Below are positions 3,568 to 56,565 of a stretch of 64,000 nucleotides of DNA, one piece after another (positions within the stretch are counted from its first letter, which is position 1; every line of letters begins with the position of its first letter). The position numbers and the translations under genes were made by a program. The stretch is from a virus: IMG/VR virus record IMGVR_UViG_3300042731_007874; one strand, 5' to 3'. The notes beneath the pieces are model-generated. The model was not told where the DNA came from, ran no database searches, and saw only the letters and a list, made by a program, of their open reading frames with translations.

Positions 3568-3599
3568 TACGTTGGATCTAGTATTAGATAGTCAAAATA
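3568..3599 (-). repeat. upstream repeat B, copy 1
   Basis: TACGTTGGATCTAGTATTAGATAGTCAAAATA matches 4181-4212 at 29/32 nt; intergenic, upstream of 3534. Confidence 0.8.
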
Positions 3600-3628
3600 G
3601 ATATTTTTGGTAAGCTCCAGTAATGAAT

Positions 3629-3829
3629 TTATACTTTTTCTCTCATATATTCTGTAATTACAGAGTTACATTCTTTTAGTAACCCAATAAGTTCATGCCA
3701 ACAACTATCAGTAGCAGGAAGACTTTCAAAGGTCCGCCTTAGTTCTGGATAACAAATCCAATTAATAGAAACCTGACAGACCACTGCTGCTCCTATTAGT
3801 TTTGGATTCTGGTGAACATGGCTACTCAT
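3629..3829 (-). CDS. hypothetical protein
   Basis: 66-aa ORF on the coding strand with AAGAAGGA upstream. Confidence 0.55.
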   Translation of the reverse strand: MSSHVHQNPKLIGAAVVCQVSINWICYPELRRTFESLPATDSCWHELIGLLKECNSVITEYMREKV

Positions 3830-3911
3830 TCCTTCTTTACAATAATGACAAGAACATTTTTCTATTTTTTCATATCTTTTTCCTTTTCCGGAGCGCCGGG
3901 TAATGGTCTTG

Positions 3912-4180: not shown

Positions 4181-4275
4181 TACATTGGATCTAGTAGTAG
4201 ATGGTCAAAATACACTGAAAACATAACAAATACACTAATTACATTGGATCTAGTAAAATATGAACCAAATACACT
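4181..4275 (-). repeat. upstream repeat B, copies 2 and 3, plus three AAATACACT units
   Basis: TACATTGGATCTAGTA at 4181 and 4240; AAATACACT at 4208, 4228 and 4267. Confidence 0.75.
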
Positions 4276-4539: not shown

Positions 4540-4974
4540 CTAATAATGACATTTCAATTCTAAGATACCTAGAAGCTCTTATAATCCATTTCTCTTCTTT
4601 AAGAGTACCGTCTATCCTAAATTTAGTTTTATAGGATTCTAGAGGTATTCTCATTATTCTGATAGAAGATTAGAGTTCTCTTTATGGGCCATCAGGGAAG
4701 AAGTTTCTTTCAAAAGACAAATATACATATTTAGGAGTAGTTTCTTCTTTAGGATCTTATATTCAGGGAATTATATTATTAGGATAGTATAGCTTCTTCA
4801 GGAAATACTATAGTCAAGAAGATCCTTAAGAGCATAACTAACACTTTTTAAACTTACTAACATTGAACATATAATAATATGTATGTTTGTAAATAATAAG
4901 TATAATGTATAATAGGTTAAGCTCTTATAGCTTCTAAATCCGTATATGCGTTTAAATAGATAATAAGTAGTTAG

Positions 4975-5139: not shown

Positions 5140-5352
5140 GACATTTTCTCCTTGTTTGCTATTTTCCTACAGTAATACTGTACGAATTCTTATTGTTGAC
5201 CAAACCATGACCACAAAAGCCATAAAAGCCACAAAAAATAATATGTAATAATTTCAGGTGTTTGGTTTGGTTTTGCTATATACAGCTATACAGCCGAGAT
5301 ACAGCTTTTTTAAACAAAACCAATTCCACTAATATTAAACACGAATATCGTG

Positions 5353-7383: not shown

Positions 7384-7800
7384 TTAGTTTACGACTCTGA
7401 CAAAAGTCAGCTTACGACAGACAAGACTTTCAAAATTCAGCCCAAAGCAACAATTATTCTCAACAGCAACAACGTCTTTCTTATCCACTTTAAATTTTAC
7501 AATTACTCCGTCACAATAGAATCTCTGAAGCTTGGCAGACTCTAAATTAGTATAGACGCAATATCCTTTATAAATTTCTCCCTTCTTCAATTCTTCTTCA
7601 GTTGGCCTTGAAGATCGATCAATCTGGAATACTTGTTGTTTAGAGAAATCCCAAATACAAGACTGATAAGAAAACCTATAATAATTTTTACTCGAACATT
7701 CTCTTAGAACTTTATAAACATAAACTTCTTGTTGATCTCCAAGAAACTCTTGAAGATCTTCTTTATTGTCTTTTTGACTTGACTTAATTTCTATTGACAT
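7384..7800 (-). CDS. paralog family A, copy 3
   Basis: Shared family motifs. Confidence 0.85.
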   Translation of the reverse strand: MSIEIKSSQKDNKEDLQEFLGDQQEVYVYKVLRECSSKNYYRFSYQSCIWDFSKQQVFQIDRSSRPTEEELKKGEIYKGYCVYTNLESAKLQRFYCDGVIVKFKVDKKDVVAVENNCCFGLNFESLVCRKLTFVRVVN

Positions 7801-7827
7801 AATACTTCCCTTTCTACTCTAGGTGCT

Positions 7828-8292
7828 CTAGAGTTCTTTACTGGCCAGAGCCAGTTCTTTAGTCCATTTCTCAACAAGAGCTGTATTAACAACATCTCCT
7901 GTTTGTTTAGTGACAATACAAATAAGATTACGGATTTTACCCATAACCTTATTGATTATTTTGTCAATCTTAGACACTACTTTACTCTTAATTCTTTTTA
8001 CTGCGGCGCGTCGAGCAACTCTCCGCTCCTCAATCTCCTCAATATAAAGCTCTTCCAAGAACAGCTCTATATCTTCAATATTCATATCGTTCATTACGGC
8101 CGAAGCCGCCATGAAGACAATCAACCTATTCATGTCGTTACCTTTTCCCTTCTTGACAATAGCCTTCTTATAAGGCGGTGTCCACTTGGAGAGGTCAAGC
8201 CTCTCCTCTACAATTCGATCTTCTTTAACACCACTTTTTACCAGAGCGCCCGCAAGCGCCCTCATTCCAGAAGCCATTCTTGTGATAAACAT
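7828..8292 (-). CDS. hypothetical protein; N-terminal ~43 aa shared with 9466-9711
   Basis: MFITRMAS...RLDLSKWTPPYKK followed by a helical region. Confidence 0.75.
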   Translation of the reverse strand: MFITRMASGMRALAGALVKSGVKEDRIVEERLDLSKWTPPYKKAIVKKGKGNDMNRLIVFMAASAVMNDMNIEDIELFLEELYIEEIEERRVARRAAVKRIKSKVVSKIDKIINKVMGKIRNLICIVTKQTGDVVNTALVEKWTKELALASKEL

Positions 8293-8303
8293 AACGTTTA
8301 CCC

Positions 8304-8397
8304 TTTCTCCTACTAAAGTAGGATAGTTAAACAGAGCAAAATTGCTCTATAGAGCCTACCAATCTAATTGATAGACTCAAAGAACACTTTTACTTTA
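8304..8397 (-). promoter_or_regulatory. 94-nt structured leader element C, copy 1
   Basis: 76/94 identical to 9930-10023; three inverted repeats; ends in the SD of the 8292 gene. Confidence 0.75.
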
Positions 8398-8893
8398 GAT
8401 TATTTAGAATGAATTCAATATCAGCATCTGTATAAGATTGAGGAGGAGAGTAAATAATACCCTCAGACATAATATCTCCAGAATGAGACACATGTTCCTC
8501 AACCCCAATATAATGAACTAGCTCATGCATTATATCAAACAGGAATTGTTTCTCAGACTTAATCTTATATGACATCACAAGGATATCGTACTTGGTTGAC
8601 ATACCTAAGGTATTGTCATCACCTCTGTAGGTTGGCGACGACAAACAATACACAACATCCTTGCCGTCGTTTGTTATATCTATATCATCCGGATGTCTAG
8701 CTGGTCTGTCCCAGCCAGCCAAATCCACCTGATAATCAATATACTCGTCACCAAGGACGTTGTTAAGTTTATTAACGGCCTGTTCAACAAGCCCATACTC
8801 TCTCTGAGAACATGAGCTATTGATATACAGGCCACCTTGTTCTTCTTGGCACGCCGCCAATACCAGAATAGTTATAATCACCAATGTTTTCAT
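8390..8893 (-). CDS. lipoprotein zinc metallopeptidase (metzincin/matrixin-like)
   Basis: Lipobox VLAAC; HELVHYIGVEEH zinc motif followed by a DIM Met-turn. Confidence 0.8.
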   Translation of the reverse strand: MKTLVIITILVLAACQEEQGGLYINSSCSQREYGLVEQAVNKLNNVLGDEYIDYQVDLAGWDRPARHPDDIDITNDGKDVVYCLSSPTYRGDDNTLGMSTKYDILVMSYKIKSEKQFLFDIMHELVHYIGVEEHVSHSGDIMSEGIIYSPPQSYTDADIEFILNNLK

Positions 8894-8912
8894 TTTCTTT
8901 TTCCTTTCTTTG

Positions 8913-9314
8913 TTAATTTGAAAACTCTACAAAAGTCAGCTTTTTGCAAACTAATTCTTCGTGAGCCTCATCAACAGCCACAATGTCTTCTCGTTCAACT
9001 TCGAATTTAACAGTTTTTCTACCATAGAAATCCCAACCCATAAAGTCGTCTTTGAAAGAAGCATAGACATGAAGTCCTTCCGCTATCTCTCCAGATTCCC
9101 GCTCTTCTTCAGTCGGTTTAGAAGATCTATTTATTTCAAATATATTGTGTTTATTGAAATCCCAAATAAATTCCCCATGACGTGGAGATCTATAAAAATT
9201 TTCCCATGAACTTTTTACTACAATTTTATAAACAAAGACCTTATCACGATTACCAACAAAATTTTGAAGGATTATATCGTTCTCTTCTTGGCTTTTGTTA
9301 ATGCTTAGAGGCAT
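8913..9314 (-). CDS. paralog family A, copy 4
   Basis: Shared motifs; the start at 9314 (MPLSINK) aligns with the other copies. Confidence 0.8.
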   Translation of the reverse strand: MPLSINKSQEENDIILQNFVGNRDKVFVYKIVVKSSWENFYRSPRHGEFIWDFNKHNIFEINRSSKPTEEERESGEIAEGLHVYASFKDDFMGWDFYGRKTVKFEVEREDIVAVDEAHEELVCKKLTFVEFSN

Positions 9315-9465
9315 AACTTTTTCCTTTCCCGGCAAACGCCGAATATTGAGACCCTTATGGCCAATCAGATACATATTCCCAGCCTTTCTTAACAGGCTGA
9401 GACTTTACTCTCTTACCTTGTTTCTCTTCTTTCATTTGTTTATTACGTTTCTTCTTTTTAGCCAT

Positions 9466-9711
9466 TTAGATTCCTCCACAATCCGGGCAGCAAAGCCACC
9501 CATTATAGTTACGGACACTAGGCTTAACAGAACCACAGTATCCACATCGGATTACATCATCTTCCAGAAACCTTCTTTGAGGCTTCTTATAAGGAGGAAC
9601 CCACTTACTGAGGTCCAACCTTTCTTCGATGATCCTGTCTCCCTTTACGCCGCTCTTAATAAGAGCACTTGCGAAAGTCCCTTTGTCTGAAGCCATTCTT
9701 GTGATTATCAT
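9466..9711 (-). CDS. hypothetical Zn-ribbon protein sharing an N-terminal module with 7828-8292
   Basis: MIITRMAS...RLDLSKWVPPYKK then CGYC...CPDC. Confidence 0.8.
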   Translation of the reverse strand: MIITRMASDKGTFASALIKSGVKGDRIIEERLDLSKWVPPYKKPQRRFLEDDVIRCGYCGSVKPSVRNYNGWLCCPDCGGI

Positions 9712-9726
9712 AGTAGTTCTCCTTTG

Positions 9727-9918
9727 TTAGTCCTTAAAAACTGATCTAGCCAAATCCTCAATACCTGCCACAGTAAGCCAACAAAACATTTGATTATTGA
9801 TTTTTCTCATTCTCGCCGCATACTCTTTCTTTGTTAGAGCCTGCCTCTTAAGCTGATCCTTAAGTGAACCACTTGCTACGAATAAATCATACAACTTCTG
9901 ATTGGTCTTCTTTGACAT
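9727..9918 (-). CDS. hypothetical protein
   Basis: 63-aa ORF with SD AGGAGA. Confidence 0.65.
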   Translation of the reverse strand: MSKKTNQKLYDLFVASGSLKDQLKRQALTKKEYAARMRKINNQMFCWLTVAGIEDLARSVFKD

Positions 9919-9929
9919 GACGATCTCTC

Positions 9930-10023
9930 TTTCTCCTATAAATATAGGATAGTAAATTAGAGCAAAATTGCTCTACAAGGCCCACCAACCTAGTTGATAA
10001 GCCCGAAGAACATTTTTACTTTA
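9930..10023 (-). promoter_or_regulatory. 94-nt structured leader element C, copy 2
   Basis: Duplicate of 8304-8397 with compensatory stem changes. Confidence 0.75.
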
Positions 10024-10702
10024 TATGTCCTTCTGGACATATACCCACTCCAAGAAGACTAAGAGCTTGTAAGGCAGGGTTATTTGTTTCTTTTGTCCCG
10101 AGCGTTTCTTTCTCTATCGCGATATTAAGCTGTCGCCTTCGTGCTACAATTTCTTTATGTCCCATGCCAGCCATGTCATAGAACTTTTCTATATTATCCA
10201 TTACTTTGACAAGGCCATCAAGGTGGCCATTATCAATAGCAACTCTGTCTGCTTCCAGTTCTATTTTGATGGTTGACTCCGCACCAAACATCCTCTTGAA
10301 CATATTCAAGGGATTAGGATTATCCAAGTGACCACACTTGATGTGACCTATCTCATGAGCGAGAATTGCTTCTTGTATTTCTTTGTCCGCCGCCATAAAG
10401 GCGTCGTTGACAACAATAACAAACTCACCATTAATTCTCCCAACAAGAGCACTTGGCATATCCTTCTGTCCTTGCAGTACAAATATACCATTGAAGTGCT
10501 TGAGGTAGACCTTCCTACCATTAATAGTCGTTTCTCCAATGTCTCGCATAGAGAGAAGCCCTTCTACTCCTTGTTCCTCTATAAGCGCCTTAGTATCAAC
10601 ATAGACCTTATAGTTCATCTTGACCTGGCCTACCATAAAGTCCTTAACAGGGCTAATCTTCTCTACTACGTCCCTCACTGCATATTTTGTTCTATCCAAC
10701 AT
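10016..10702 (-). CDS. zinc metallopeptidase, M48/HtpX-like
   Basis: AILAHEIGH plus downstream ELEAD third ligand; SD GGAGA supports a start at 10702. Confidence 0.8.
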   Translation of the reverse strand: MLDRTKYAVRDVVEKISPVKDFMVGQVKMNYKVYVDTKALIEEQGVEGLLSMRDIGETTINGRKVYLKHFNGIFVLQGQKDMPSALVGRINGEFVIVVNDAFMAADKEIQEAILAHEIGHIKCGHLDNPNPLNMFKRMFGAESTIKIELEADRVAIDNGHLDGLVKVMDNIEKFYDMAGMGHKEIVARRRQLNIAIEKETLGTKETNNPALQALSLLGVGICPEGHIK

Positions 10703-10718
10703 GATACATTCTCCATTT

Positions 10719-10772
10719 ATCCTACATATATATATAGGATAGGTTATGTAGACATACATTATGTATATCTAC
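10719..10772 (-). promoter_or_regulatory. two-hairpin leader resembling element C
   Basis: 11-bp stem with triloop (10748-10772) and ATCCTA..TAGGAT stem (10719-10740) next to the SD. Confidence 0.55.
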
Positions 10773-10802
10773 TACATTACCATTACTTATTGTTTATTTA
10801 GA

Positions 10803-24524: not shown

Positions 24525-26558
24525 ATGGGAAAGCTCAAGGAAGTATTTTTACATGACGAACTTCTCCAAGAAAATCTTCGATCTATTAGTTCGTGGGAAA
24601 AGACTCTTCGTGAACCTGCTCCGACTCCTAAAGTCAAAGCTGGCTTTACCCTAACCTATAAAGATTCTCAAAAACTAATAGAAAGCAATGATCTTCCATA
24701 TGGTAGACCAATGCGTTTTGTTGAGCCTTCTGGAGTTACTCCTATTTCTAGGGTTGCTCGAAATGAACCAAAAACGCTCTTAAATAAACTATTAACAAAA
24801 AAGAATATAAAAACAGCTGCTAGATATGCTGGTATCTTTACTGCTACAAATCTATTACTTCCAGGTCAGTTTTGGGCAAACGCCGTATCTTCTGCTGGTT
24901 TTGATGTCGCTAGACATGTCGCCAGCAAGAAAGGCATTACCGGATGGAAATCATTGGCAGTAGGAGTAGGAGGAAGTATTGCGGCTCATGCAATAATGGG
25001 AATTTCCTTTTCTGGGAAAGACGACTACTGGAACTCAATTGAGGGTTTATTTCATGGAGGAATGGCCGAAACACAAAGAAAACAACTAACTGAATTTGGA
25101 TCTGGTTGGGATTCTGCAAGAGCAATGGCTCGTTCTATCTATAAAGGAATGGACGAACAAGCCGCATTTGATAAATTTAGAAGAAGTGATTTGTTTAGAT
25201 CTGGTATCTCTAAAGCTTTACAAGGAGAAGGTAAGCTATTAGGTTCTGGTTTGACAGCAGATGCCTATGCCTATACGGCTTCAATTAAACACGGAATAGA
25301 AGGGGTTTCAGAAGAGCTTCCCTTCGTTGTTAAGAAAACAACAAACGAGAGAATAGAGAAGCAAATACTAGATAGGGCTGCCAGAAATATGAGCGATACT
25401 TCTATGGCGGCGATAAATAACCCAGCAAGAGAAGCAAGTTGGGCAGCGAAAGTTAAAGAAGAAGCTTCTGGATGGATTAATAATTTACAGGAAAAAACTA
25501 TTCAGGCCGAGGAAATGTCCTTGTCTAAAGCCGGGCAATATAATGCTCCTTCTCTTTATGGAACTGGAAAAGAATACGGAATAGGTAATGCAGTTATTAT
25601 GGAAAAGTTTGAAGGAGAAGTTCTTAAGGGTGGGTTATCTCTTAAAGAAGCGAAAGAAGCCTATTCTTCCTTAAAGAAAGTTCATCAAGCAGGAGTTACA
25701 CATACAGACCTTTGGAAAGAGAACTTATTCAGGACTAAAGAAGGCAATATTGGAATTCTTGACTTCGGGATGGCAAACAGATTAGAGGGAGAAGGAATCC
25801 ATGCAAAAGTTTGGAAAGGCAGAGAAGATATTATTCAAGAAGCAGCACAGTCTGTTTTAGGAAGAAAAACTTCGGATAGAGAATTTCAAGAGACTTTAGA
25901 TGTTTCTCGTCTTTACGCACATTATCTTGAAGGCCAGGGAAAGAAAACAGAAGCAGAAAAAATACATCGTTTCTATGGCTCTTTTTTGTCTTCGTCTTCT
26001 ACGTCCGGTTTAATTACAGAATCAGAAACTTTATTTAGAACCAAACTAGCAGCAGATAAAGCTTTGGGGACTGGTATCAAGGAAGAAATAGTCCCATATA
26101 TAAAAGCAACAAGAAAACCAACTGGATCTAATTTGGCTCATGCACAAACAGAATTGTTTGAGAATTCTATGGAGCGAGCGAAAACAAATGCATTTAAAGC
26201 TCCGGTCATACAGACAAAAACATCATCAGGATTAGGAACTTTAGAAGAACATGGTAGAGAAGCTTTTGCAGACACGATTCTGCAGCTTAATAGAGTTCCA
26301 AATGAGATTTTAGCCTCTCCGGTAGATAATGTTGCTTCTACTTTCGCCGCTGCACAACAATATTCTCCAACAAGAATTCAGCAGGATTTACAAATGGGAG
26401 TTAAAGCTCCTTCTGTAATGGCAAGTACAGCAGAGAGAAGAACTCAGGTAAGGAGAATAAAGAAATTTCAATCAGCCTCTATGGCTGCAACAGGACTAGG
26501 TTTTAAATCTGCAAAAAATGCAGGACGAAGACATAATAGGTTTTCAACACTTGGGTGA
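24525..26558 (+). CDS. large protein with an internal protein-kinase-like domain
   Basis: LGSGLTADAY, FVVKK, VIMEKFEG, HTDLWKEN and ILDFGMA motifs. Confidence 0.8.
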   Translation: MGKLKEVFLHDELLQENLRSISSWEKTLREPAPTPKVKAGFTLTYKDSQKLIESNDLPYGRPMRFVEPSGVTPISRVARNEPKTLLNKLLTKKNIKTAARYAGIFTATNLLLPGQFWANAVSSAGFDVARHVASKKGITGWKSLAVGVGGSIAAHAIMGISFSGKDDYWNSIEGLFHGGMAETQRKQLTEFGSGWDSARAMARSIYKGMDEQAAFDKFRRSDLFRSGISKALQGEGKLLGSGLTADAYAYTASIKHGIEGVSEELPFVVKKTTNERIEKQILDRAARNMSDTSMAAINNPAREASWAAKVKEEASGWINNLQEKTIQAEEMSLSKAGQYNAPSLYGTGKEYGIGNAVIMEKFEGEVLKGGLSLKEAKEAYSSLKKVHQAGVTHTDLWKENLFRTKEGNIGILDFGMANRLEGEGIHAKVWKGREDIIQEAAQSVLGRKTSDREFQETLDVSRLYAHYLEGQGKKTEAEKIHRFYGSFLSSSSTSGLITESETLFRTKLAADKALGTGIKEEIVPYIKATRKPTGSNLAHAQTELFENSMERAKTNAFKAPVIQTKTSSGLGTLEEHGREAFADTILQLNRVPNEILASPVDNVASTFAAAQQYSPTRIQQDLQMGVKAPSVMASTAERRTQVRRIKKFQSASMAATGLGFKSAKNAGRRHNRFSTLG

Positions 26559-36367: not shown

Positions 36368-38464
36368 ATGCCGCAAATTGCACAATTTAGAGATTTTTTT
36401 GAGTTGGTTCCTCCCACCCAAGAAGATTTTCAAGCGTTTGAGGATTCTAAAGCTTCCAGTTCAAAAAAGAAAAAAGGACTGGAGGTTACTTTTGTTGCAA
36501 CTAATTCAGGAAAAGTAAACCATAACCTTCGTTTGTATCTTCCTTCTTTGATGGAAGAGGGGGCAGATTCTTTTATAAACAGAAAGAAACCGGCTAAAAT
36601 CTTAAAACACCACAACGGGATGTCTGATCCAGTTGGTAAGATTACTGGGTCGGAATATGTTTCTAACATTCCAGATAGTCTAAAAGACGATCCTAATGTC
36701 AAGATTATGACCGATAAAGAACTTCCTATTGATGTAAAACTAAAGGCAGTTCGAAATTTTATCGCAAGTAGGGTCCCGTTGTCTTCTGATTTTCAAGGAC
36801 TTGGCTATATAAAGTTAAAAGGTCTTATTTTAGATAACGAAACCATTGAACAAATTAAAGACGGAAGGTATGACGAAGTTAGTACTTCTTTCCATTCCCC
36901 TGGATTAGTATTTTGTTCAGAATGCGGCACAAATCTTACAAAAGATGATTGTGAGCATTATCCAGGAAGGATTTATTATGAAGACGAGGAAGAGAAAACA
37001 AACGGAGCTATTTGCGTAATCGTTCCTGGGAAACATTTGTATGACGAATGTAGTCTTGTAGTAAATCCTGCAGACAGTGATACCGAAATAAAATTCGGTG
37101 ATATGAAAGAAACACTAGTCTCTTTGGGAGACACAGATAAAACTATTAAGGAGTATCAAATTGCCCGAAAGGAGATCTTTAGCGATGATGCTTCTTATGT
37201 TCTTAAAAATGACGAGGAGGAACCAATGAAGCTTTCTGATTCTCAACAGAAGGTCTTCGAGGTTATCAAGAATCTCCGACCGGAAATGTCGGAAGAAGAC
37301 GCAAAATCAATGGCAGTTAAGATAGAGGCTATGGTCGATAAGGATGGAGTTTATCCTAATCAGCTAGAAGCAGAGATTGATAACAACACTGCAATTGAAT
37401 ATATCCTTGATGATCTTGAAACATCTGAAGAAGAAATTAACGCGGATGAGGTTTATGAGGAACTAGAGAAAGAATTGGTTTCTCTTGAACTTGAAGATGC
37501 AAAACTTTCCACTAAGCAACGAAAAGATTTGCCAGCAAGTGCTTTTTGTGGCCCTAATAGGAGTTTCCCAGTTAATGACTGTGCCCATGTAACGGCAGCC
37601 CGGAGACTTCTTGGCCGTTATAAAGGACCTGGCAATAAAACTAGTATTCTTGCTTGTATAAATCGAAAAGCAAAATCACTAGGATGTGACAGCTCAGATT
37701 CTACCAAGCCTGATGATCAAGAACCAACAAATGATTTTGTTTTACCAACATGCGAAGCAATTAAAAGCTTAAATGACGAAGATATGCTTTTGCTTTTCTC
37801 TATGGCAGAGACAGAACTTATTGACAGGAAGAAAAAGCTTCCTAGAGAGTGCTCTAGTTGTGCAGAAGCTCATGCTCTCAAAGACAAAGCTGTAGCGGAA
37901 AAAGAACTTACTACTGACGAACTTAATAAATTATCTTCTAAAGTGGTTGCTCTTCGAGAAGAATTTCGGCTTCAGGCAGCTGACTATCAGAATCTGGTTT
38001 CGGACTACGCTTTACTCGGAGCAAAACTAGACGACCTGAAACGAGATAAGCTTTCATTAATGAAGGTTCTTTCTGGTTCAGGAAAGATGTCTTTGGACGA
38101 AGCAAAAGATAGTCTTAAACAGGCAGATCTGGAACGAGCAGAGATTACGATTTCTGATAATTTTGATTTAGAGAAGATTTCTGACAAGCTTTTTGACGGA
38201 ATGGATCATACTCCATCAGGAGAGCAGGTAGGAGATCCTTCGGTTCATCCTGATAATCAAGGAGAACCAGAGTTCACTGCTAGGGAGCAGATCGCGATCA
38301 AAAGAATAGAGGAAGCCCTTCGAGACAAAAATGAAACTGAAGCCTATCGGCTCTATGATAAATTTGTATCTATTGAAGTAATAAATCCAACCAAAATTAC
38401 TTTTGAGAAAATAGCGGAAGACGCTACAGAAGATAATTCAGGAGGTAATAGTAATGACAATTAA
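36368..38464 (+). CDS. prohead protease/scaffold fusion
   Basis: ILKHHN..PVGKI, EVSTSF and ECSLVVNPAD protease motifs; long coiled-coil C-terminus; follows the portal gene. Confidence 0.8.
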   Translation: MPQIAQFRDFFELVPPTQEDFQAFEDSKASSSKKKKGLEVTFVATNSGKVNHNLRLYLPSLMEEGADSFINRKKPAKILKHHNGMSDPVGKITGSEYVSNIPDSLKDDPNVKIMTDKELPIDVKLKAVRNFIASRVPLSSDFQGLGYIKLKGLILDNETIEQIKDGRYDEVSTSFHSPGLVFCSECGTNLTKDDCEHYPGRIYYEDEEEKTNGAICVIVPGKHLYDECSLVVNPADSDTEIKFGDMKETLVSLGDTDKTIKEYQIARKEIFSDDASYVLKNDEEEPMKLSDSQQKVFEVIKNLRPEMSEEDAKSMAVKIEAMVDKDGVYPNQLEAEIDNNTAIEYILDDLETSEEEINADEVYEELEKELVSLELEDAKLSTKQRKDLPASAFCGPNRSFPVNDCAHVTAARRLLGRYKGPGNKTSILACINRKAKSLGCDSSDSTKPDDQEPTNDFVLPTCEAIKSLNDEDMLLLFSMAETELIDRKKKLPRECSSCAEAHALKDKAVAEKELTTDELNKLSSKVVALREEFRLQAADYQNLVSDYALLGAKLDDLKRDKLSLMKVLSGSGKMSLDEAKDSLKQADLERAEITISDNFDLEKISDKLFDGMDHTPSGEQVGDPSVHPDNQGEPEFTAREQIAIKRIEEALRDKNETEAYRLYDKFVSIEVINPTKITFEKIAEDATEDNSGGNSNDN

Positions 38465-51900: not shown

Positions 51901-54900
51901 TTGGTCTTACCAACAATCGCTTCAGGAGATCAGCCTCTTCCTTCAGATCAGGGAGATTTAACCCCTATTGCAAAGGCTGCGTTGGTTACTGGAAGCATAG
52001 GCGCTTCTGGTTTCATTCCTACTGCAAACGGCAGACTTTTTGATCGTTATGTAAATGCTATAAGAGCTGTTGAGACAGGATTTCCGGCTGCAATTTTAAG
52101 AACTTTCAGAACTTCTGAGTTCTTATCTCCTCTAGAATCTTGGTCTCAAATTGACGTTTCCACTTCTGCACTTCAACACGGGAAGTATGCAGAATTCTTA
52201 TCTTCTAGATTTGGTCATGCTACAGGTCTTTCTTTAAAACGTACAGGTTCTGTCTTTGGTCAAGTTACAAACGAAGCTGGAGAACTCTTAGGTTATGGTC
52301 TTCAAATCGAAGCTGGAAGCCAAAAGGGAACTGCCATCGCAGACTATTTTGCCCGGGTTTCCGGAGTCCAGCTTACAGAATTCCAATCTCTTAATGATGC
52401 ACTATTAAGATCTCAATATAGAATCGCTAATCCTGGAATTCCTTATGCTGAATGGTTAGAGTCTTTAGAACCTCAGTTAAGAAGACAAAGACTTATTCTT
52501 GGAAGCCGAATTAGAAGTAAAATAAATATACTTGGCAAAGATCTTCAGTTATCTAAGTCTTTTGCCGCAGGTCTTGCAAAAACAGAAACTGTCTTTAATT
52601 TACTTCGAGCAAAAGCAGCTTCCACTACAGGCCGTCTAAACACCCTTCTCTCGGCTCCTCTAGACATACCCTACCTGGGGGGTGTCTTATCTAAGATACC
52701 TGGACTGAGAAGCCTCTCTGTGCGTCCTGGTACAAGTACACAGATGATCAGTCGCTTCATTGGTAAGGGGTTGTTAATAGGTGCTGGATGGAAAGGGTTA
52801 GAGTATTTAGATTACTTAAGGCATGAAGGAAGTCCTCTAGCTCCAGTTTTCTCTACTGCCGCAGGTGCTGGAATTGGATCTCTAATTGCTCGTGCTCCAG
52901 GAGCAAAGTTTTCTAAGGCCGGATTGTTGATTGGTGGAGCAGTTGGACTTTTGGCAGGTATCGCTCCTAGATTTGACGAGGGTCTCTTTTATGGAGCCGC
53001 CACATTAGCTACAGATCTTACTTTAACAAAAGCAGAAATTTCAGAAAGTATTGGTTTAACAGAATCTCTTCAAGAACAAGAGAGAGTAACTCCTGGTCTG
53101 ACAGATATTTCTACTGGAATGGCATTTGCTGGTATCGGTGCCATGGCAGCTGGTTTTTTCTCTTATGGCGGGCTTTTGAAAGAATCAATTCTTAACAGAA
53201 AATCCGCATCCAGGTTTGCTGATGTTATTGAACTAACCAGAGCAGCTAGAAAAGAAAATTTATTAAAAGGAGTTTGGAAATCTAGATTTGGTCGAGCAAT
53301 TGAAGACATTCCTCTTCTAAAGAATATTACGAAAACAAAGTCCCCCATGCTATTAGGAGCTTTAGCCGGTTTTGCTGGTTGGCAACTCTTGTCTTCTGGT
53401 TTGTCTATTCTGTCTGGGAACCCTATGGCAGCTGTCCCCGGAGCTTCTGTATTAGGAACAACAGAAACACCAGAAGCACTACAAGCAATCTATTCTGGAG
53501 AAGAAGAAGTCCCTATAAGAAAAGGCAGATTTTGGGAATTCGGCCGGTGTTTGGCGGAACATACTGAAATCATTACGTTTTCTGGTATTTCCAAGAAAGC
53601 TAAAGATATTAAAATAGGAGATGTTCTTGTTGGGAGAGATTATAAAAAAGCAACGGTAAAAAATATATTTACAAGACATCACAAAGGAGAGATTTTAAAA
53701 TTTTCTTGTGCCTTTGATCGTGACTTAAAAGTAGAAGTTACTGGTAACCATAGGATACCAATATTAAGAAAATCATATTCGAATAAAGAGCATAGAGTTG
53801 AATACAAAACAAAAGAAGTTAAAGCATCTGAAATTAGACTTAATGATTATGTTGAAGTTCCTGTTAAAAAACTAGAATCAAATATTACAGATTCTGCGAC
53901 CAACCCGGCAGTTATAAACTATAAAGGGAAGATATATGCCGCAATTAGAACTATCGAAACAGAAGAATACGATGGTGTCGTTTATGACTTCGAAGTAGAC
54001 AACCCAGATCACCTATTCAGAGCGGGTCCTTTTCTTGTTCATAATAGTTCTTTCGAAGGGGATAAAATCCAATATTTCCGGCAACATGCGCTGCCTCGTC
54101 TTAGAGCAAGAGCGTATCAAAAAGGTCTCTACGGTTCTGAAGAGGAAAGATGGGGATATAGCCCTTGGCTTAACCCTGTAAAAGCTTTATTTGGTTCTGA
54201 TGAATGGAAGTATCACTATGAGCAGAAATACCAAAAAGAGAGACCTGCTCCAGTAACAGCTCCTGCTGGACAAGAGATTCCTTTTATAGGTCCATTGGTT
54301 GCAGAGACAATTGGTAAGCTAATAAAGCCTAGAAAATTAGTTCGTCCAGAAGAATGGATTACCGATACTGGAGTAAAGTATAAACCGTCAGATGAAGAGT
54401 TAGAACCCGCTTATGGAGTTGGAGGACTATCTGCTGGTCAACCTTTGTCTCCAGGAGAACCAACTCAATTATTTAACGAGCTGCTTTATAGAAGAAGAGA
54501 AGCTATTGGTTTGGTTGGTTTTACCGAAGGAGCCCTTGTCAAGTCATTATTGGGTCGTGAAGAGATCTTTCCTAACCAACAAACACTTGCACAAATGGGA
54601 AAAGAAACTGGTGGAGAAAATTGGCTTTTTCAACATTTGAATCTTGGAGGGGCCTATACTGCCAGCGAGCCCACAAGGCGATTTATTCCTAGAACTAGAA
54701 GTTATTTAGATACTTACAACCCTTTATCAAACCAAATGCCTTCTTGGATGCCGGGAGAAGATTACTTTATGGATTTTAAGACAGGAAATCCTTATCAATT
54801 ATCTCAACTTCCAGAAGCAGAGATTCGTCTTCCAGGTCCAGGGCTTGCAAGTTTATATCCTGCGTTAGAAGGAGTAGATCCTGAAAATTATCCGTTGGCA

Positions 54901-56565
54901 TATCGAGCAAAAGTATTAGGTGACGTTGCTTTTTGGAGCAATGAATACAGACAAACAATCTCCCAAGCAAAGAAGAACTTAAAATACATGTCAGAGGAAG
55001 AACAGCAAATTGTTCTAACAACAGAAGAACAAGTTAAGGCTAAAAAACAAAGAAGAAACTTTAAAGATTATGTTTTTGCCCAAGACCAATTACAACAAGA
55101 GACTGTTACCGTAACAAATGTTTTGTCTCCGCGAAGATTTAAAACAAAAGAATATGGAGATACTATATTAGAAGCAAAAGGTATTGGCGCGATTACCAAA
55201 CCACAAGAGGCTTTAGAGACGACCAGAAATGTTCTTGAAGGAAGTAGGATCTCTATTTATTCTCCAGGTCTAGAGTCTAGAAGATTTAGTCGTGTTTCTG
55301 AAGGGCCAAGAATGGAAGTTGTTCCAATGCTTGGAGATAGAGATTTAGGAACTGTTCTTACGGAAGCCGGGTATGCTCAACACAAAGAACTAGAAGATGA
55401 ATTTAGACAAATTAGATTTACTCCTTCAGAACGACTAGCTGGGTCGATCTCTGAAAAAGTACTCCATGGAGCAGAAACTCCTTTAGAATATCTGACTCCT
55501 ATCTCTCCTGCTTCTAAGTTAATTAGACAGCGATCTCCAATAGAAGAATACGAGAGAACAGAAGCAATTGGAACTGCAAATTCTTTCTGGGATCGCCCCG
55601 TAGATAACTTCTTAAAGCCTGCTTACAATATGACTAAATACGAGTTAGGTTCTAGCGAGATACCAGAAGAGATACAACAGCGGCGCGATATAACAGAATA
55701 TTTTGATAAGTTACAGTGGGTTAAAGCATCAAGACTAGAGGCCAAAGCAAAACTAACCGGAGACTTTCATTTAGCTTCAGAGTTTAAGAAACAAAAAGAA
55801 TCTACTGTTTTTGGTGTTAATGTTTTCGGCTCTCCCGTTAATGTAATGAGAGCTTTACCTCGTCGAGAAAGAGATTTCTTTAATGAATTTGTTCAAGCAA
55901 AAACAATAGAAGACAGAGAGAAAATTTTATCTTTAGTTCCAGAAGACGAAAGAAGGATTTATATTTCTCAATGGGCAAGACAAGAAGAAAATAGTTCAAG
56001 AGCTAAATTAGAAGCCAAAATTGCAACAGAAGACGACAACAAAACTCTAGGCTTAGTTGCTCAAATGAGAAAGTCAGAAGGGTTCTCTTTTGATGAGGCA
56101 ATGGCAAGACGATGGATGGAAGAGACTGGAGGTAAGATTCCTTTTGATGATTGGCTGAGAGAACAAAAAGCAGAAGAGTATTTTAGAACTCATTCATTAC
56201 CAGGTGCAGACTGGATCGGTTTTAACCCTGCGGTTAGCCTAGATGATATTCGTATGGTTGCTGTTGAAATGCTTGGGCAAGATTTCCATGAACATGATTT
56301 ATGGGATGACAGAAAAAGAATGTTAGCAAGAAAACCTTATATAAATCCCACTGTAGTATCAGAAATGCAAGAGCAGGCAGAATATCAAGATAGCTGGAAG
56401 GTTGCTAGAAACTCTAAAGCTTTAACTCAAATGTTTGGAGACTATAAGGCTTCTTTGTATCAATCAAAGATTGCTGCTAATATTGGCCCGCCGCGATATA
56501 ATATAGAATTAAGAGATGGAAGACAAGATCTTGTTGACAAAGCTTATGAGAGGATTACCGGTTAA
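51901..56565 (+). CDS. tape-measure-like / ejected large virion protein (intein-containing)
   Basis: 1554 aa; Gly/Ala hydrophobic segments; follows the chaperones; TTG start with GGAGG 7 nt upstream. Confidence 0.7.
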   Translation: MVLPTIASGDQPLPSDQGDLTPIAKAALVTGSIGASGFIPTANGRLFDRYVNAIRAVETGFPAAILRTFRTSEFLSPLESWSQIDVSTSALQHGKYAEFLSSRFGHATGLSLKRTGSVFGQVTNEAGELLGYGLQIEAGSQKGTAIADYFARVSGVQLTEFQSLNDALLRSQYRIANPGIPYAEWLESLEPQLRRQRLILGSRIRSKINILGKDLQLSKSFAAGLAKTETVFNLLRAKAASTTGRLNTLLSAPLDIPYLGGVLSKIPGLRSLSVRPGTSTQMISRFIGKGLLIGAGWKGLEYLDYLRHEGSPLAPVFSTAAGAGIGSLIARAPGAKFSKAGLLIGGAVGLLAGIAPRFDEGLFYGAATLATDLTLTKAEISESIGLTESLQEQERVTPGLTDISTGMAFAGIGAMAAGFFSYGGLLKESILNRKSASRFADVIELTRAARKENLLKGVWKSRFGRAIEDIPLLKNITKTKSPMLLGALAGFAGWQLLSSGLSILSGNPMAAVPGASVLGTTETPEALQAIYSGEEEVPIRKGRFWEFGRCLAEHTEIITFSGISKKAKDIKIGDVLVGRDYKKATVKNIFTRHHKGEILKFSCAFDRDLKVEVTGNHRIPILRKSYSNKEHRVEYKTKEVKASEIRLNDYVEVPVKKLESNITDSATNPAVINYKGKIYAAIRTIETEEYDGVVYDFEVDNPDHLFRAGPFLVHNSSFEGDKIQYFRQHALPRLRARAYQKGLYGSEEERWGYSPWLNPVKALFGSDEWKYHYEQKYQKERPAPVTAPAGQEIPFIGPLVAETIGKLIKPRKLVRPEEWITDTGVKYKPSDEELEPAYGVGGLSAGQPLSPGEPTQLFNELLYRRREAIGLVGFTEGALVKSLLGREEIFPNQQTLAQMGKETGGENWLFQHLNLGGAYTASEPTRRFIPRTRSYLDTYNPLSNQMPSWMPGEDYFMDFKTGNPYQLSQLPEAEIRLPGPGLASLYPALEGVDPENYPLAYRAKVLGDVAFWSNEYRQTISQAKKNLKYMSEEEQQIVLTTEEQVKAKKQRRNFKDYVFAQDQLQQETVTVTNVLSPRRFKTKEYGDTILEAKGIGAITKPQEALETTRNVLEGSRISIYSPGLESRRFSRVSEGPRMEVVPMLGDRDLGTVLTEAGYAQHKELEDEFRQIRFTPSERLAGSISEKVLHGAETPLEYLTPISPASKLIRQRSPIEEYERTEAIGTANSFWDRPVDNFLKPAYNMTKYELGSSEIPEEIQQRRDITEYFDKLQWVKASRLEAKAKLTGDFHLASEFKKQKESTVFGVNVFGSPVNVMRALPRRERDFFNEFVQAKTIEDREKILSLVPEDERRIYISQWARQEENSSRAKLEAKIATEDDNKTLGLVAQMRKSEGFSFDEAMARRWMEETGGKIPFDDWLREQKAEEYFRTHSLPGADWIGFNPAVSLDDIRMVAVEMLGQDFHEHDLWDDRKRMLARKPYINPTVVSEMQEQAEYQDSWKVARNSKALTQMFGDYKASLYQSKIAANIGPPRYNIELRDGRQDLVDKAYERITG
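53548..54045 (+). mobile_element. 166-aa mini-intein
   Basis: Begins CLAEHTEI, VTGNHRI block B, ends VYDFEV..FLVHN, +1 Ser; no endonuclease. Confidence 0.92.

Follow-up and report, generated by a model that had tools for sequence, protein, structure and literature searches.

Repeated, structured spacers that punctuate the early genes of bacteriophages and mark cassette boundaries are a kind of element already known. The RNase III sites among the early genes of coliphages T7 and T3 (R0.3, R0.5, R1, R1.1, and R1.3) and the Bacillus RNase III sites in SP82 early RNA lie between cistrons of polycistronic messages of small genes. Each forms a hairpin with an internal loop and a length of about two helical turns, and the sites are related in sequence within one genome. 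Hue, Cohen and Bechhofer (1995) reportedly found that in SP82 a purine-rich stretch resembling a Shine-Dalgarno (SD) sequence, just past the cut, stabilizes the downstream RNA. At known RNase III sites, the cut leaves the upstream message with a 3′ hairpin that protects it (PMC1540722). The PeSLs (promoter-early stem-loops) of T4-type phages are composite spacers at points of gene gain, loss, or swap (Arbiol et al. 2010, PMC2839356; Comeau et al. 2014, PMC4122927), made up of a stem-loop, a conserved block, an SD sequence, and a start codon among small accessory genes. We present here an intercistronic leader of 108 to 112 nucleotides (nt), found twice in a 64,000-nt stretch of viral DNA (the window) from IMG/VR record IMGVR_UViG_3300042731_007874.

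The core of the leader is a 12-bp hairpin that is kept by compensatory change and formed on the sense strand only. The best reading of the whole element is a cis-acting intercistronic RNA that fills the spacer between genes in a leftward operon of small, early-looking genes ("early-looking" is only a label here for the leftward gene arm that holds both copies). A preliminary description of this DNA had proposed a cis-regulatory RNA acting in processing, stability, or translation control, and the homologues, the covariation of the upper stem, the sense-strand fold, and the lack of an Rfam family uphold that proposal. Like the T7, T3, and SP82 sites, the leader lies between small genes, is predicted to form a hairpin of about two helical turns, in most copies with a small internal loop, and has copies related in sequence within one genome; it has the layout of PeSLs, and like them it fills its spacer. 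Its sequence family is new, and its architecture is unlike that of both the T7 sites and PeSLs; most likely it is a lineage-specific version of a common phage device.

The repeated leader

Positions 8304 to 8397 and 9930 to 10023, first reported as identical at 76 of 94 positions, gave the same count when recomputed. The full repeat is longer, and over a 112-nt span (8289 to 8400 and 9915 to 10026) its copies are 78.6% identical.

8293 to 8400, minus strand: leader copy A (repeat family D4; covariance-model match, 133.7 bits; alignments A2 and A4)
9919 to 10026, minus strand: leader copy B (repeat detection; covariance-model match, 132.2 bits)

Copy A begins at the last codon and the TAA (8392 to 8390) of a lipoprotein-like gene and ends immediately ahead of the ATG (8292) of a 154-amino-acid (aa) gene; copy B begins at the last codon and the TAA (10018 to 10016) of an M48-like peptidase gene and ends immediately ahead of the ATG (9918) of a 63-aa gene. 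The codon before TAA is AAG in each. No further full copy is present in the 120.5-kb record beyond A and B. The predicted folding energy of each 94-nt copy is about −33 kcal/mol (z about −5; 0 of 200 shuffles as stable), compared with −20 kcal/mol for the opposite strand. The elements rank third and fifth in stability among about 60,000 66-nt windows from both genome strands (mean, −8.8 kcal/mol; standard deviation, 4.1 kcal/mol).

Homologues of the 154-aa and lipoprotein-like proteins in a database of 5.8 billion proteins led to five metagenome contigs of close relatives (L016, L017, L018, L020, and L021), which hold seven further copies, for nine copies on six DNAs in all. A covariance model (R1) built from the two window copies scored the copies of the relatives at 71 to 121 bits. 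Three lie in L016 (2749 to 2856, 3756 to 3843, and 4317 to 4424) and one each in L017 and L021; those in L018 and L020 are cut at the contig end. Where a contig is long enough to judge, it has between one and three copies.

In the window, copies A and B head collinear duplicated segments that consist of the leader, a gene with a common N terminus (M-F/I-ITRMAS...), and a gene of a paralogue family of about 133 to 138 aa, with the 63-aa gene as an extra between leader and paralogous gene on the copy B side. Against the 78.6% of the leader, identity is 67% over the first 146 nt of the common-N-terminus gene and 63% in the paralogue gene of about 133 to 138 aa; by these values, the leader is the best-kept part of an old collinear duplication. 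Membership in such a segment is what a neutral leftover with no function of its own would show, a reading that we hold to be highly implausible: the noncoding leader is better kept than the duplicated coding DNA (63 to 67%), all stem changes among the nine copies keep pairing, and a 16-nt block within the leader is invariant.

Conserved structure

Hairpin 1 is as first described, with 12 bp and a UAG loop in both window copies. Between A and B, it displays two double changes (A-U to G-C and U-A to C-G), four one-sided changes through G-U, and no broken pairs, again as described. The two window copies alone give moderate evidence for compensation (P = 0.05 under a transitions-only null, 0.003 with transitions to transversions at 2:1, and 0.18 under the most conservative null), and the argument becomes strong because the seven copies from relatives were added. 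Across all nine, five pairs are changed on both sides, four on one side through G-U, and three are invariant, with every cell paired. None of 500 column shuffles matches the observed pairing or covariation score, and sliding the partner strand by 1 to 3 columns lowers pairing to 37 to 54%. Every variable stem column (14 of 14) varies by transitions only, versus 14 of 32 variable columns elsewhere (Fisher p = 2e-4). The suspected covariation of the upper stem is thus borne out by both the column shuffles and the transition test. The stem is also the most variable part of the leader (72% mean pairwise identity), and its loop differs among copies (UAG, CUA, or UGG). On the complementary strand, each copy loses 2 to 4 of the 12 pairs to A.C mismatches and keeps 8 to 10, and the 60-nt core folds at −25 to −29 kcal/mol in the sense direction versus −8 to −13 kcal/mol in antisense.

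The 5′ flank of the hairpin, AGUAAAAGUGUUCU, is almost invariant in the nine copies and contains the upstream stop codon. The 16-nt block AGAGCAAUUUUGCUCU, which forms hairpin 2, is invariant at 16 of 16 columns in all nine, while the adjoining stem and linker vary; its AGAGCAA/UUGCUCU stem is identical in both window copies, as was first noted. Flank and block are complementary (UGUUCU with AGAGCA and AGUAAAA with UUUUGCU), which under hairpin 1 extends the pairing to 24 to 27 pairs.

8335 to 8394, minus strand: predicted long interrupted hairpin of copy A, 25 bp (RNAfold); lower stem AGUAAAA/UUUUGCU, middle stem UGUUCU/AGAGCA, upper stem 8378 to 8367 with 8363 to 8352, loop UAG
9961 to 10020, minus strand: predicted long interrupted hairpin of copy B, 26 bp (RNA folding); upper stem 10004 to 9993 with 9989 to 9978, loop UAG
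8333 to 8348, minus strand: invariant block AGAGCAAUUUUGCUCU of copy A (conservation and fold), whose 5′ arm and loop double as the 3′ strand of the long hairpin
9959 to 9974, minus strand: invariant block AGAGCAAUUUUGCUCU of copy B (conservation), a weak terminator-like site by consensus scan

We infer that the upper stem stacks on two stems made by the 5′ flank and the invariant AGAGCAAUUUUGCU segment, in a quasi-continuous helix of 24 to 27 bp with a small internal loop in most copies of the predicted fold. The long hairpin has a predicted energy of −25.9 kcal/mol sense versus −8.0 kcal/mol antisense in copy A (RNAfold) and −27.1 versus −8.1 kcal/mol in copy B, where the middle and lower stems have pair probabilities of 0.73 to 0.76. 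All eight copies that are complete across its span are predicted to form 24 to 27 pairs at −25 to −29 kcal/mol. A 2x3 internal loop is present in five of these eight (window copy A, L016 4317 to 4424, L016 3756 to 3843, L017, and L020); window copy B has small bulges instead, and L021 and L016 2749 to 2856 have almost no interruption. Five of the six complete copies are predicted to form the long hairpin with a pair probability of 0.46 to 0.97, a share at least close to that of hairpin 2; in the sixth, window copy A, the value is 0.22.

The long hairpin and hairpin 2 are mutually exclusive because AGAGCA pairs either with the upstream UGUUCU or with the downstream UGCUCU. A segment with two alternative partners would be expected to be frozen, which fits its invariance; the single substitution in a paired column of the flank changes A-U to G-U. 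The original picture of three hairpins in a row is therefore sound in that hairpins 1 and 2 exist as pairings, and incomplete in that, by pair probabilities, the long hairpin competes with hairpin 2.

Apart from tRNAs, no Rfam family reached its gathering score anywhere in the window, in the remainder of the genome, or in L016 or L017, in agreement with the preliminary description. With E values up to 5 allowed, Rfam still returned nothing over the long hairpin, hairpin 2, or hairpin 3. A weak PYLIS_2 match (8231 to 8309; E, 1.3) reaches 16.8 bits where the gathering score is 36; it touches the edge of the leader and lies mostly inside the 154-aa gene.

The strand preference bears on whether the element acts as DNA, whether as a hairpin promoter for a virion RNA polymerase, as a palindromic operator (AGAGCAA-TT-TTGCTCT), or as an attC-like site. 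Early promoter hairpins of N4, which its virion RNA polymerase reads, have a three-base loop, as does the leader, and like it they occur two or three times in an arm of early-looking genes. Invariance of the 16-bp inverted repeat is what an operator would show, and the element lies at cassette junctions. Integron attC sites and phage attC-like sites are, similarly, imperfect palindromes at the 3′ ends of cassettes whose content varies among relatives. A role of this kind is nevertheless very improbable. The leader stem has 12 bp, not the 5 to 7 bp of N4, and is well formed on the nontemplate strand only; the template strand carries the A.C mismatches and folds 15 to 20 kcal/mol more weakly. 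The loop sequence is not kept among the copies. No recognizable virion RNA polymerase was found, and the candidate open reading frame (ORF) matches no Pfam or PHROG family. The single-stranded DNA hairpin promoter first offered as an option is not supported. An attC-like site was rejected as well: the top (coding) strand folds better, no GTTRRRY core lies at the cassette boundary, R′/R″ cores and extrahelical stem bases are absent, and the 120-kb record contains no tyrosine recombinase (PF00589) and no integrase or Xer-like gene.

Distribution and cassette exchange

The leader was sought widely outside these contigs. Near and distant DNA searches of public phage records with 7800 to 10800 gave no match. 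The exact 17-mer of the invariant block gave two chance matches in IMG/VR, both in unrelated contexts; a gapped pattern gave one unrelated match among JGI metagenome contigs; and IMG/VR locus searches with the 154-aa and 247-aa proteins singly gave nothing. Four more distant relatives (portal 44 to 58% identical) contain no credible match to models R1 and R2, the two marginal ones being unstructured (z about −0.3). Phages with distant homologues of the lipoprotein-like protein by profile search lack the leader and have canonical TTGACA-N17-TATAAT spacers there, and no leader was found in contigs L022 and L023, which were reached through an 81-aa gene. Within the databases searched, the family appears to be confined to one narrow lineage.

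The relatives share 80 to 86% nucleotide identity with the window in common segments and are strongly mosaic. Genes upstream of a leader are the lipoprotein-like gene (five contigs), the M48-like gene (two places), and an unrelated 80-aa gene (once); those downstream are the 154-aa gene (five times), the 63-aa gene, a 79-aa paralogue, and the M48-like gene. The leader follows the lipoprotein-like gene in five of the five contigs that cover the 3′ end of that gene. In L016, two leaders enclose a cassette of an M48-like gene plus leader at a point that holds only one leader in the window. The type of hairpin 1 tends to follow the gene upstream, and the 3′ flank the gene downstream; all combinations of hairpin 1 and linker types are seen, which points to exchange within the invariant middle block. 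By this comparison, the conserved, self-contained element serves as the homology at which cassettes are swapped among related phages.

Such junctions are also where PeSLs sit, and the leader lies at sites of insertion, deletion, and replacement, bordered by three gene families upstream and four downstream. PeSL-like transcriptional punctuation, with the stem-loop terminating or attenuating transcription and an internal promoter restarting it, or with hairpin 2 as a weak terminator and the long hairpin as its antiterminator, would account for the shared layout, the filled spacer, and the position at gene gain and loss points among close relatives (PMC4122927). Hairpin 2 of copy B passes a loose terminator scan, and GUUUUAUU or GUUUUACU follows hairpin 2 in some copies. 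We find this explanation improbable on the transcription signals themselves. Neither 8293 to 8400 nor 9919 to 10026 (minus strand) contains a sigma-70-like −35/−10 match of at least 9 of 12 positions, and the sole −10-like stretch (columns 69 to 77) is the most variable linker. Hairpin 1 and the long hairpin are followed by mixed sequence in place of the U-tract of an intrinsic terminator; hairpin 2 is weak (6 bp with three G-C pairs) and passes the scan in copy B only; and canonical GC-rich terminators with U-tracts are found elsewhere in the genome (gaps g91838 and g96251). Unlike PeSLs, then, the leader has no sigma-70-like promoter and no effective-looking terminator; its conservation concerns RNA pairing, includes G-U wobbles, and holds for the sense strand only, and its copy number is far lower. 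A boxA-like reading of UGUUCUU/UGCUCU was rejected: this strand contains the 7-mer 44 times, UGCUCU is followed by variable sequence, and a literature search gave nothing useful.

A probable role in processing and stability

RNase III reactivity is described as depending on a helix of two turns, on coaxial stacking, and on loops that restrict cleavage so that a protective hairpin remains at the 3′ end (PMC1540722). The leader's predicted helix length and its intercistronic position match these known requirements, as does the internal loop in the copies that have one. By predicted pairs, all eight span-complete copies have a quasi-continuous helix of about two turns. Our preferred reading, held tentatively and at a little below an even chance, is that the element is a processing and stability site of the RNase III type that is also a cassette junction. 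Host RNase III or a similar double-strand-specific nuclease would cut near the internal loop. The upstream message would then end in the 12-bp hairpin, protecting its 3′ end, and the released AGAGCA would re-pair with UGCUCU to form a 5′-terminal hairpin on the downstream message, followed by a UCCUA/UAGGA hairpin and a purine-rich ribosome-binding region. Such a model would also explain three features: the upper hairpin need only be a hairpin, since it would act as a 3′ protective cap; AGAGCA could re-pair with UGCUCU and so cap the downstream message at its 5′ end; and a purine-rich tract comes next. Compared with the T7 sites, the leader has the upstream stop codon in its lower stem and a 3′ strand able to re-pair into a second small hairpin; it has no sequence similarity to them and no Rfam family, is present in one to three copies per genome, and its cleavage is a prediction.

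Several observations weigh against a processing site. T7 has five early and ten total RNase III sites, compared with the one to three leader copies per genome here. No RNase III gene or gene with a double-stranded-RNA-binding domain was found in the 120-kb record, and a host enzyme is therefore assumed. Covariation is confined to the upper 12 bp; the lower 13 pairs are almost invariant and speak neither for nor against the long hairpin. When 40 nt of the 154-aa gene are added to the fold, the predicted partner of the 5′ flank becomes codons about 10 to 13 of that gene and hairpin 2 forms, which makes the lower stems context dependent in prediction. Finally, a third spacer of similar layout has a hairpin of only 11 bp, too short for a classical RNase III site.

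10703 to 10802, minus strand: third, sequence-divergent spacer before the M48-like gene, with GGAG after its hairpins (−25 kcal/mol; z, −3.5)

Its hairpins are one of 11 bp with a UAA loop (10772 to 10748) and then UAUCCUAUAU/AUGUAGGAUA (10741 to 10718). It has little sequence similarity to the leader and scores only 15 to 18 bits with models R1 and R2; its L016 orthologue carries a G-C to A-U change at the base of the stem.

The competing pairings also allow a two-state RNA device, in which AGAGCA would switch partners between the upstream UGUUCU, with the stop codon enclosed in the long hairpin, and the downstream UGCUCU, in the small hairpin, with the element again providing homology for cassette exchange. 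Either nuclease cleavage or a ribosome terminating on the embedded stop codon would drive the switch. We regard this as rather unlikely; if true, translation of the neighboring cistron would determine what becomes of each message. A target for a trans-acting ribozyme was considered and dropped, as no ribozyme family is present in the genome or its relatives.

The leader adds a covariation-supported structured RNA, outside Rfam, to the short list of phage intercistronic signals, and it indicates that a spacer of RNA structure, not a promoter-terminator pair, can be the exchange junction for accessory genes in a phage that is not of the T4 type. Its practical value is modest: it offers a defined 60-nt candidate RNase III substrate and a marker of cassette boundaries for this lineage.

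Downstream hairpins and translation

The 3′ part of the leader contains hairpin 3 and the ribosome-binding region.

8308 to 8323, minus strand: hairpin 3 of copy A, UCCUAC-UUUA-GUAGGA, holding part of AGGAG (pair probability, 0.98; one compensatory pair relative to copy B)
9934 to 9949, minus strand: hairpin 3 of copy B, UCCUAU-AUUU-AUAGGA (folding and comparison of A with B)
8301 to 8311, minus strand: purine tract of copy A, AGGAGAAAGGG (sequence reading)
8284 to 8302, minus strand: predicted small hairpin around the start codon in copy A, GGUAAAC/GUUUAUC, with a coding 3′ arm (folding only)
4613 to 4636, minus strand: fourth UCCUA...UAGGAUA hairpin motif, in a 435-nt noncoding stretch (pattern search)

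Two compensatory pairs had been claimed for hairpin 3. One is real (C-G to U-A); the other is impossible, as it would leave a 2-nt loop. The reported overlap with AGGAG holds, but AGGAG lies 14 nt from the ATG, versus the 7 to 8 nt usual for this phage, and is less well placed as an SD than the adjoining sequence. GAAAGGG, 7 to 8 nt from the ATG, appears likelier to be the working SD; in copy A, its predicted unpaired probability is 0.6 to 0.7, versus 0.17 for AGGAG.

These hairpins suggest a leader that controls translation without cleavage, with the 12-bp hairpin insulating the cistrons and the UCCUA/UAGGA and AUG hairpins setting or repressing downstream initiation; in a variant, a phage or host RNA-binding protein may recognize the recurring UAUCCUA...UAGGA. 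Hairpin 3 has a probability of 0.9 to 0.98 in five of the six complete copies. The pattern TATCCTA-N2-14-TAGGA occurs at four distinct sites within about 6 kb of the arm and nowhere else in 120 kb, and a reversed control pattern gives no sites. The AUG hairpin is predicted before both the 154-aa gene and the 79-aa paralogue and is kept in relatives through wobble changes. We consider translation control unlikely all the same. The L016 copy at 3756 to 3843 lacks hairpin 3 and has the long hairpin intact; the leader is therefore a composite of two modules, and these are separable. GAAAGGG stays mostly unpaired throughout (0.5 to 0.7). The predicted accessibility of the SD and AUG stays the same when the first 24 nt are held open to mimic a terminating ribosome or when the 5′ part is deleted, and the invariance of the 5′ flank and of AGAGCAAUUUUGCUCU goes unexplained.

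Three further translational roles were rejected. Translational coupling that reaches the ribosome-binding site fails in constrained folding, with SD and AUG accessibility unchanged. A mini-ORF of seven codons, starting with GUG or AUG and stopping at the UAG of the loop, lacks an SD and is not retained in L017 or L018, where the loop is CUA or UGG. For −1 frameshifting or readthrough at A-AAG-UAA, the hairpin is too far away, and the upstream genes are mutually unrelated.

Genome context

The window is the reverse strand of positions 24529 to 88528 of the 120.5-kb linear IMG/VR record (about 36% G+C; estimated completeness, 63%) and differs from that record (G000) by a single base over 64 kb (position 36649). 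Portal, major head protein, and tail sheath genes match distant PHROG families only; together they indicate a large tailed phage with a contractile tail that, unlike PeSL carriers, is not recognizably T4-type. From about 12026 down to 1, and past the start of the window, all genes lie on the minus strand in a tight array and are small and mostly unannotatable. The genes next to the leaders are as follows.

8390 to 8893, minus strand: lipoprotein-like gene, 167 aa, with an HExxH motif, upstream of copy A (contig comparison)
7828 to 8292, minus strand: 154-aa gene downstream of copy A, with its ATG at 8292
10016 to 10702, minus strand: M48-like metalloprotease gene upstream of copy B, true start ATG 10702 (Pfam PF01435, 23.2 bits; PHROG metalloprotease)
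9727 to 9918, minus strand: 63-aa gene between copy B and the 81-aa gene, missing at that place in L016

The 154-aa gene (7828 to 8292) and the 81-aa gene (9466 to 9711) have only their first 44 residues in common (73% identity). After this N terminus, the 81-aa protein has a zinc-ribbon-like CxxC...CxxC tail. Both proteins have few close homologues among the 5.8 billion database proteins. The AAGUGUUCUU sequence in the 5′ flank (8381 to 8390) is complementary over 10 bp to codons about 10 to 13 of the 154-aa gene (about 8252 to 8261); an AAC/GGC difference among relatives is kept by wobble, the complementarity is missing where the leader precedes other genes, and it may be due to chance.

Members of the dispersed paralogue family of about 133 to 138 aa lie at 7384 to 7800 and 8913 to 9314, neither at the same place in L016; for one of them, L017 has the M48-like gene in its place, and it is gone in L020. 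Judging from these placements, the paralogues are evidently gained and lost independently of the leaders. The most stable 66-nt fold of the 120-kb record (−31.8 kcal/mol; about 27 bp) lies at 8775 to 8840 (minus strand) in the 5′ part of the lipoprotein-like gene, a short way upstream of leader copy A; the region is kept in relatives but is coding, and its conservation may reflect either structure or protein constraint. In the tail module, a 1,554-aa ORF (51901 to 56565) has a subthreshold match to the intein splicing domain PF14890 at residues 581 to 715 (E, 2e-5; 24.8 bits against a cutoff of 35.8).

After the M48-like gene, L016 (2350 to 2516) and L022 (1252 to 1417) contain a noncoding stretch of about 165 nt that is missing from the window. 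It includes a tRNA-like piece with a GTTCGATTC T-arm and acceptor-like CCCTAG/CTAGGG pairing, after which come an AT-rich run and a GGCCGTAAGGCC hairpin; neither ARAGORN nor Rfam made a call there. The same arm as the leaders contains a 36-nt noncoding intergenic repeat in three copies (3568 to 3603, 4181 to 4216, and 4240 to 4275), reading ...TATTTTGAC..ATCTA.TACTAGATCCAA.GTA on the minus strand, which may represent a phage promoter class, although its −35/−10 spacing does not fit. Long noncoding gaps in the gene array are found at 5140 to 5352 (213 nt) and 4540 to 4974 (435 nt), the latter holding a CTATCCTA motif along with the fourth UCCUA/UAGGAUA hairpin.

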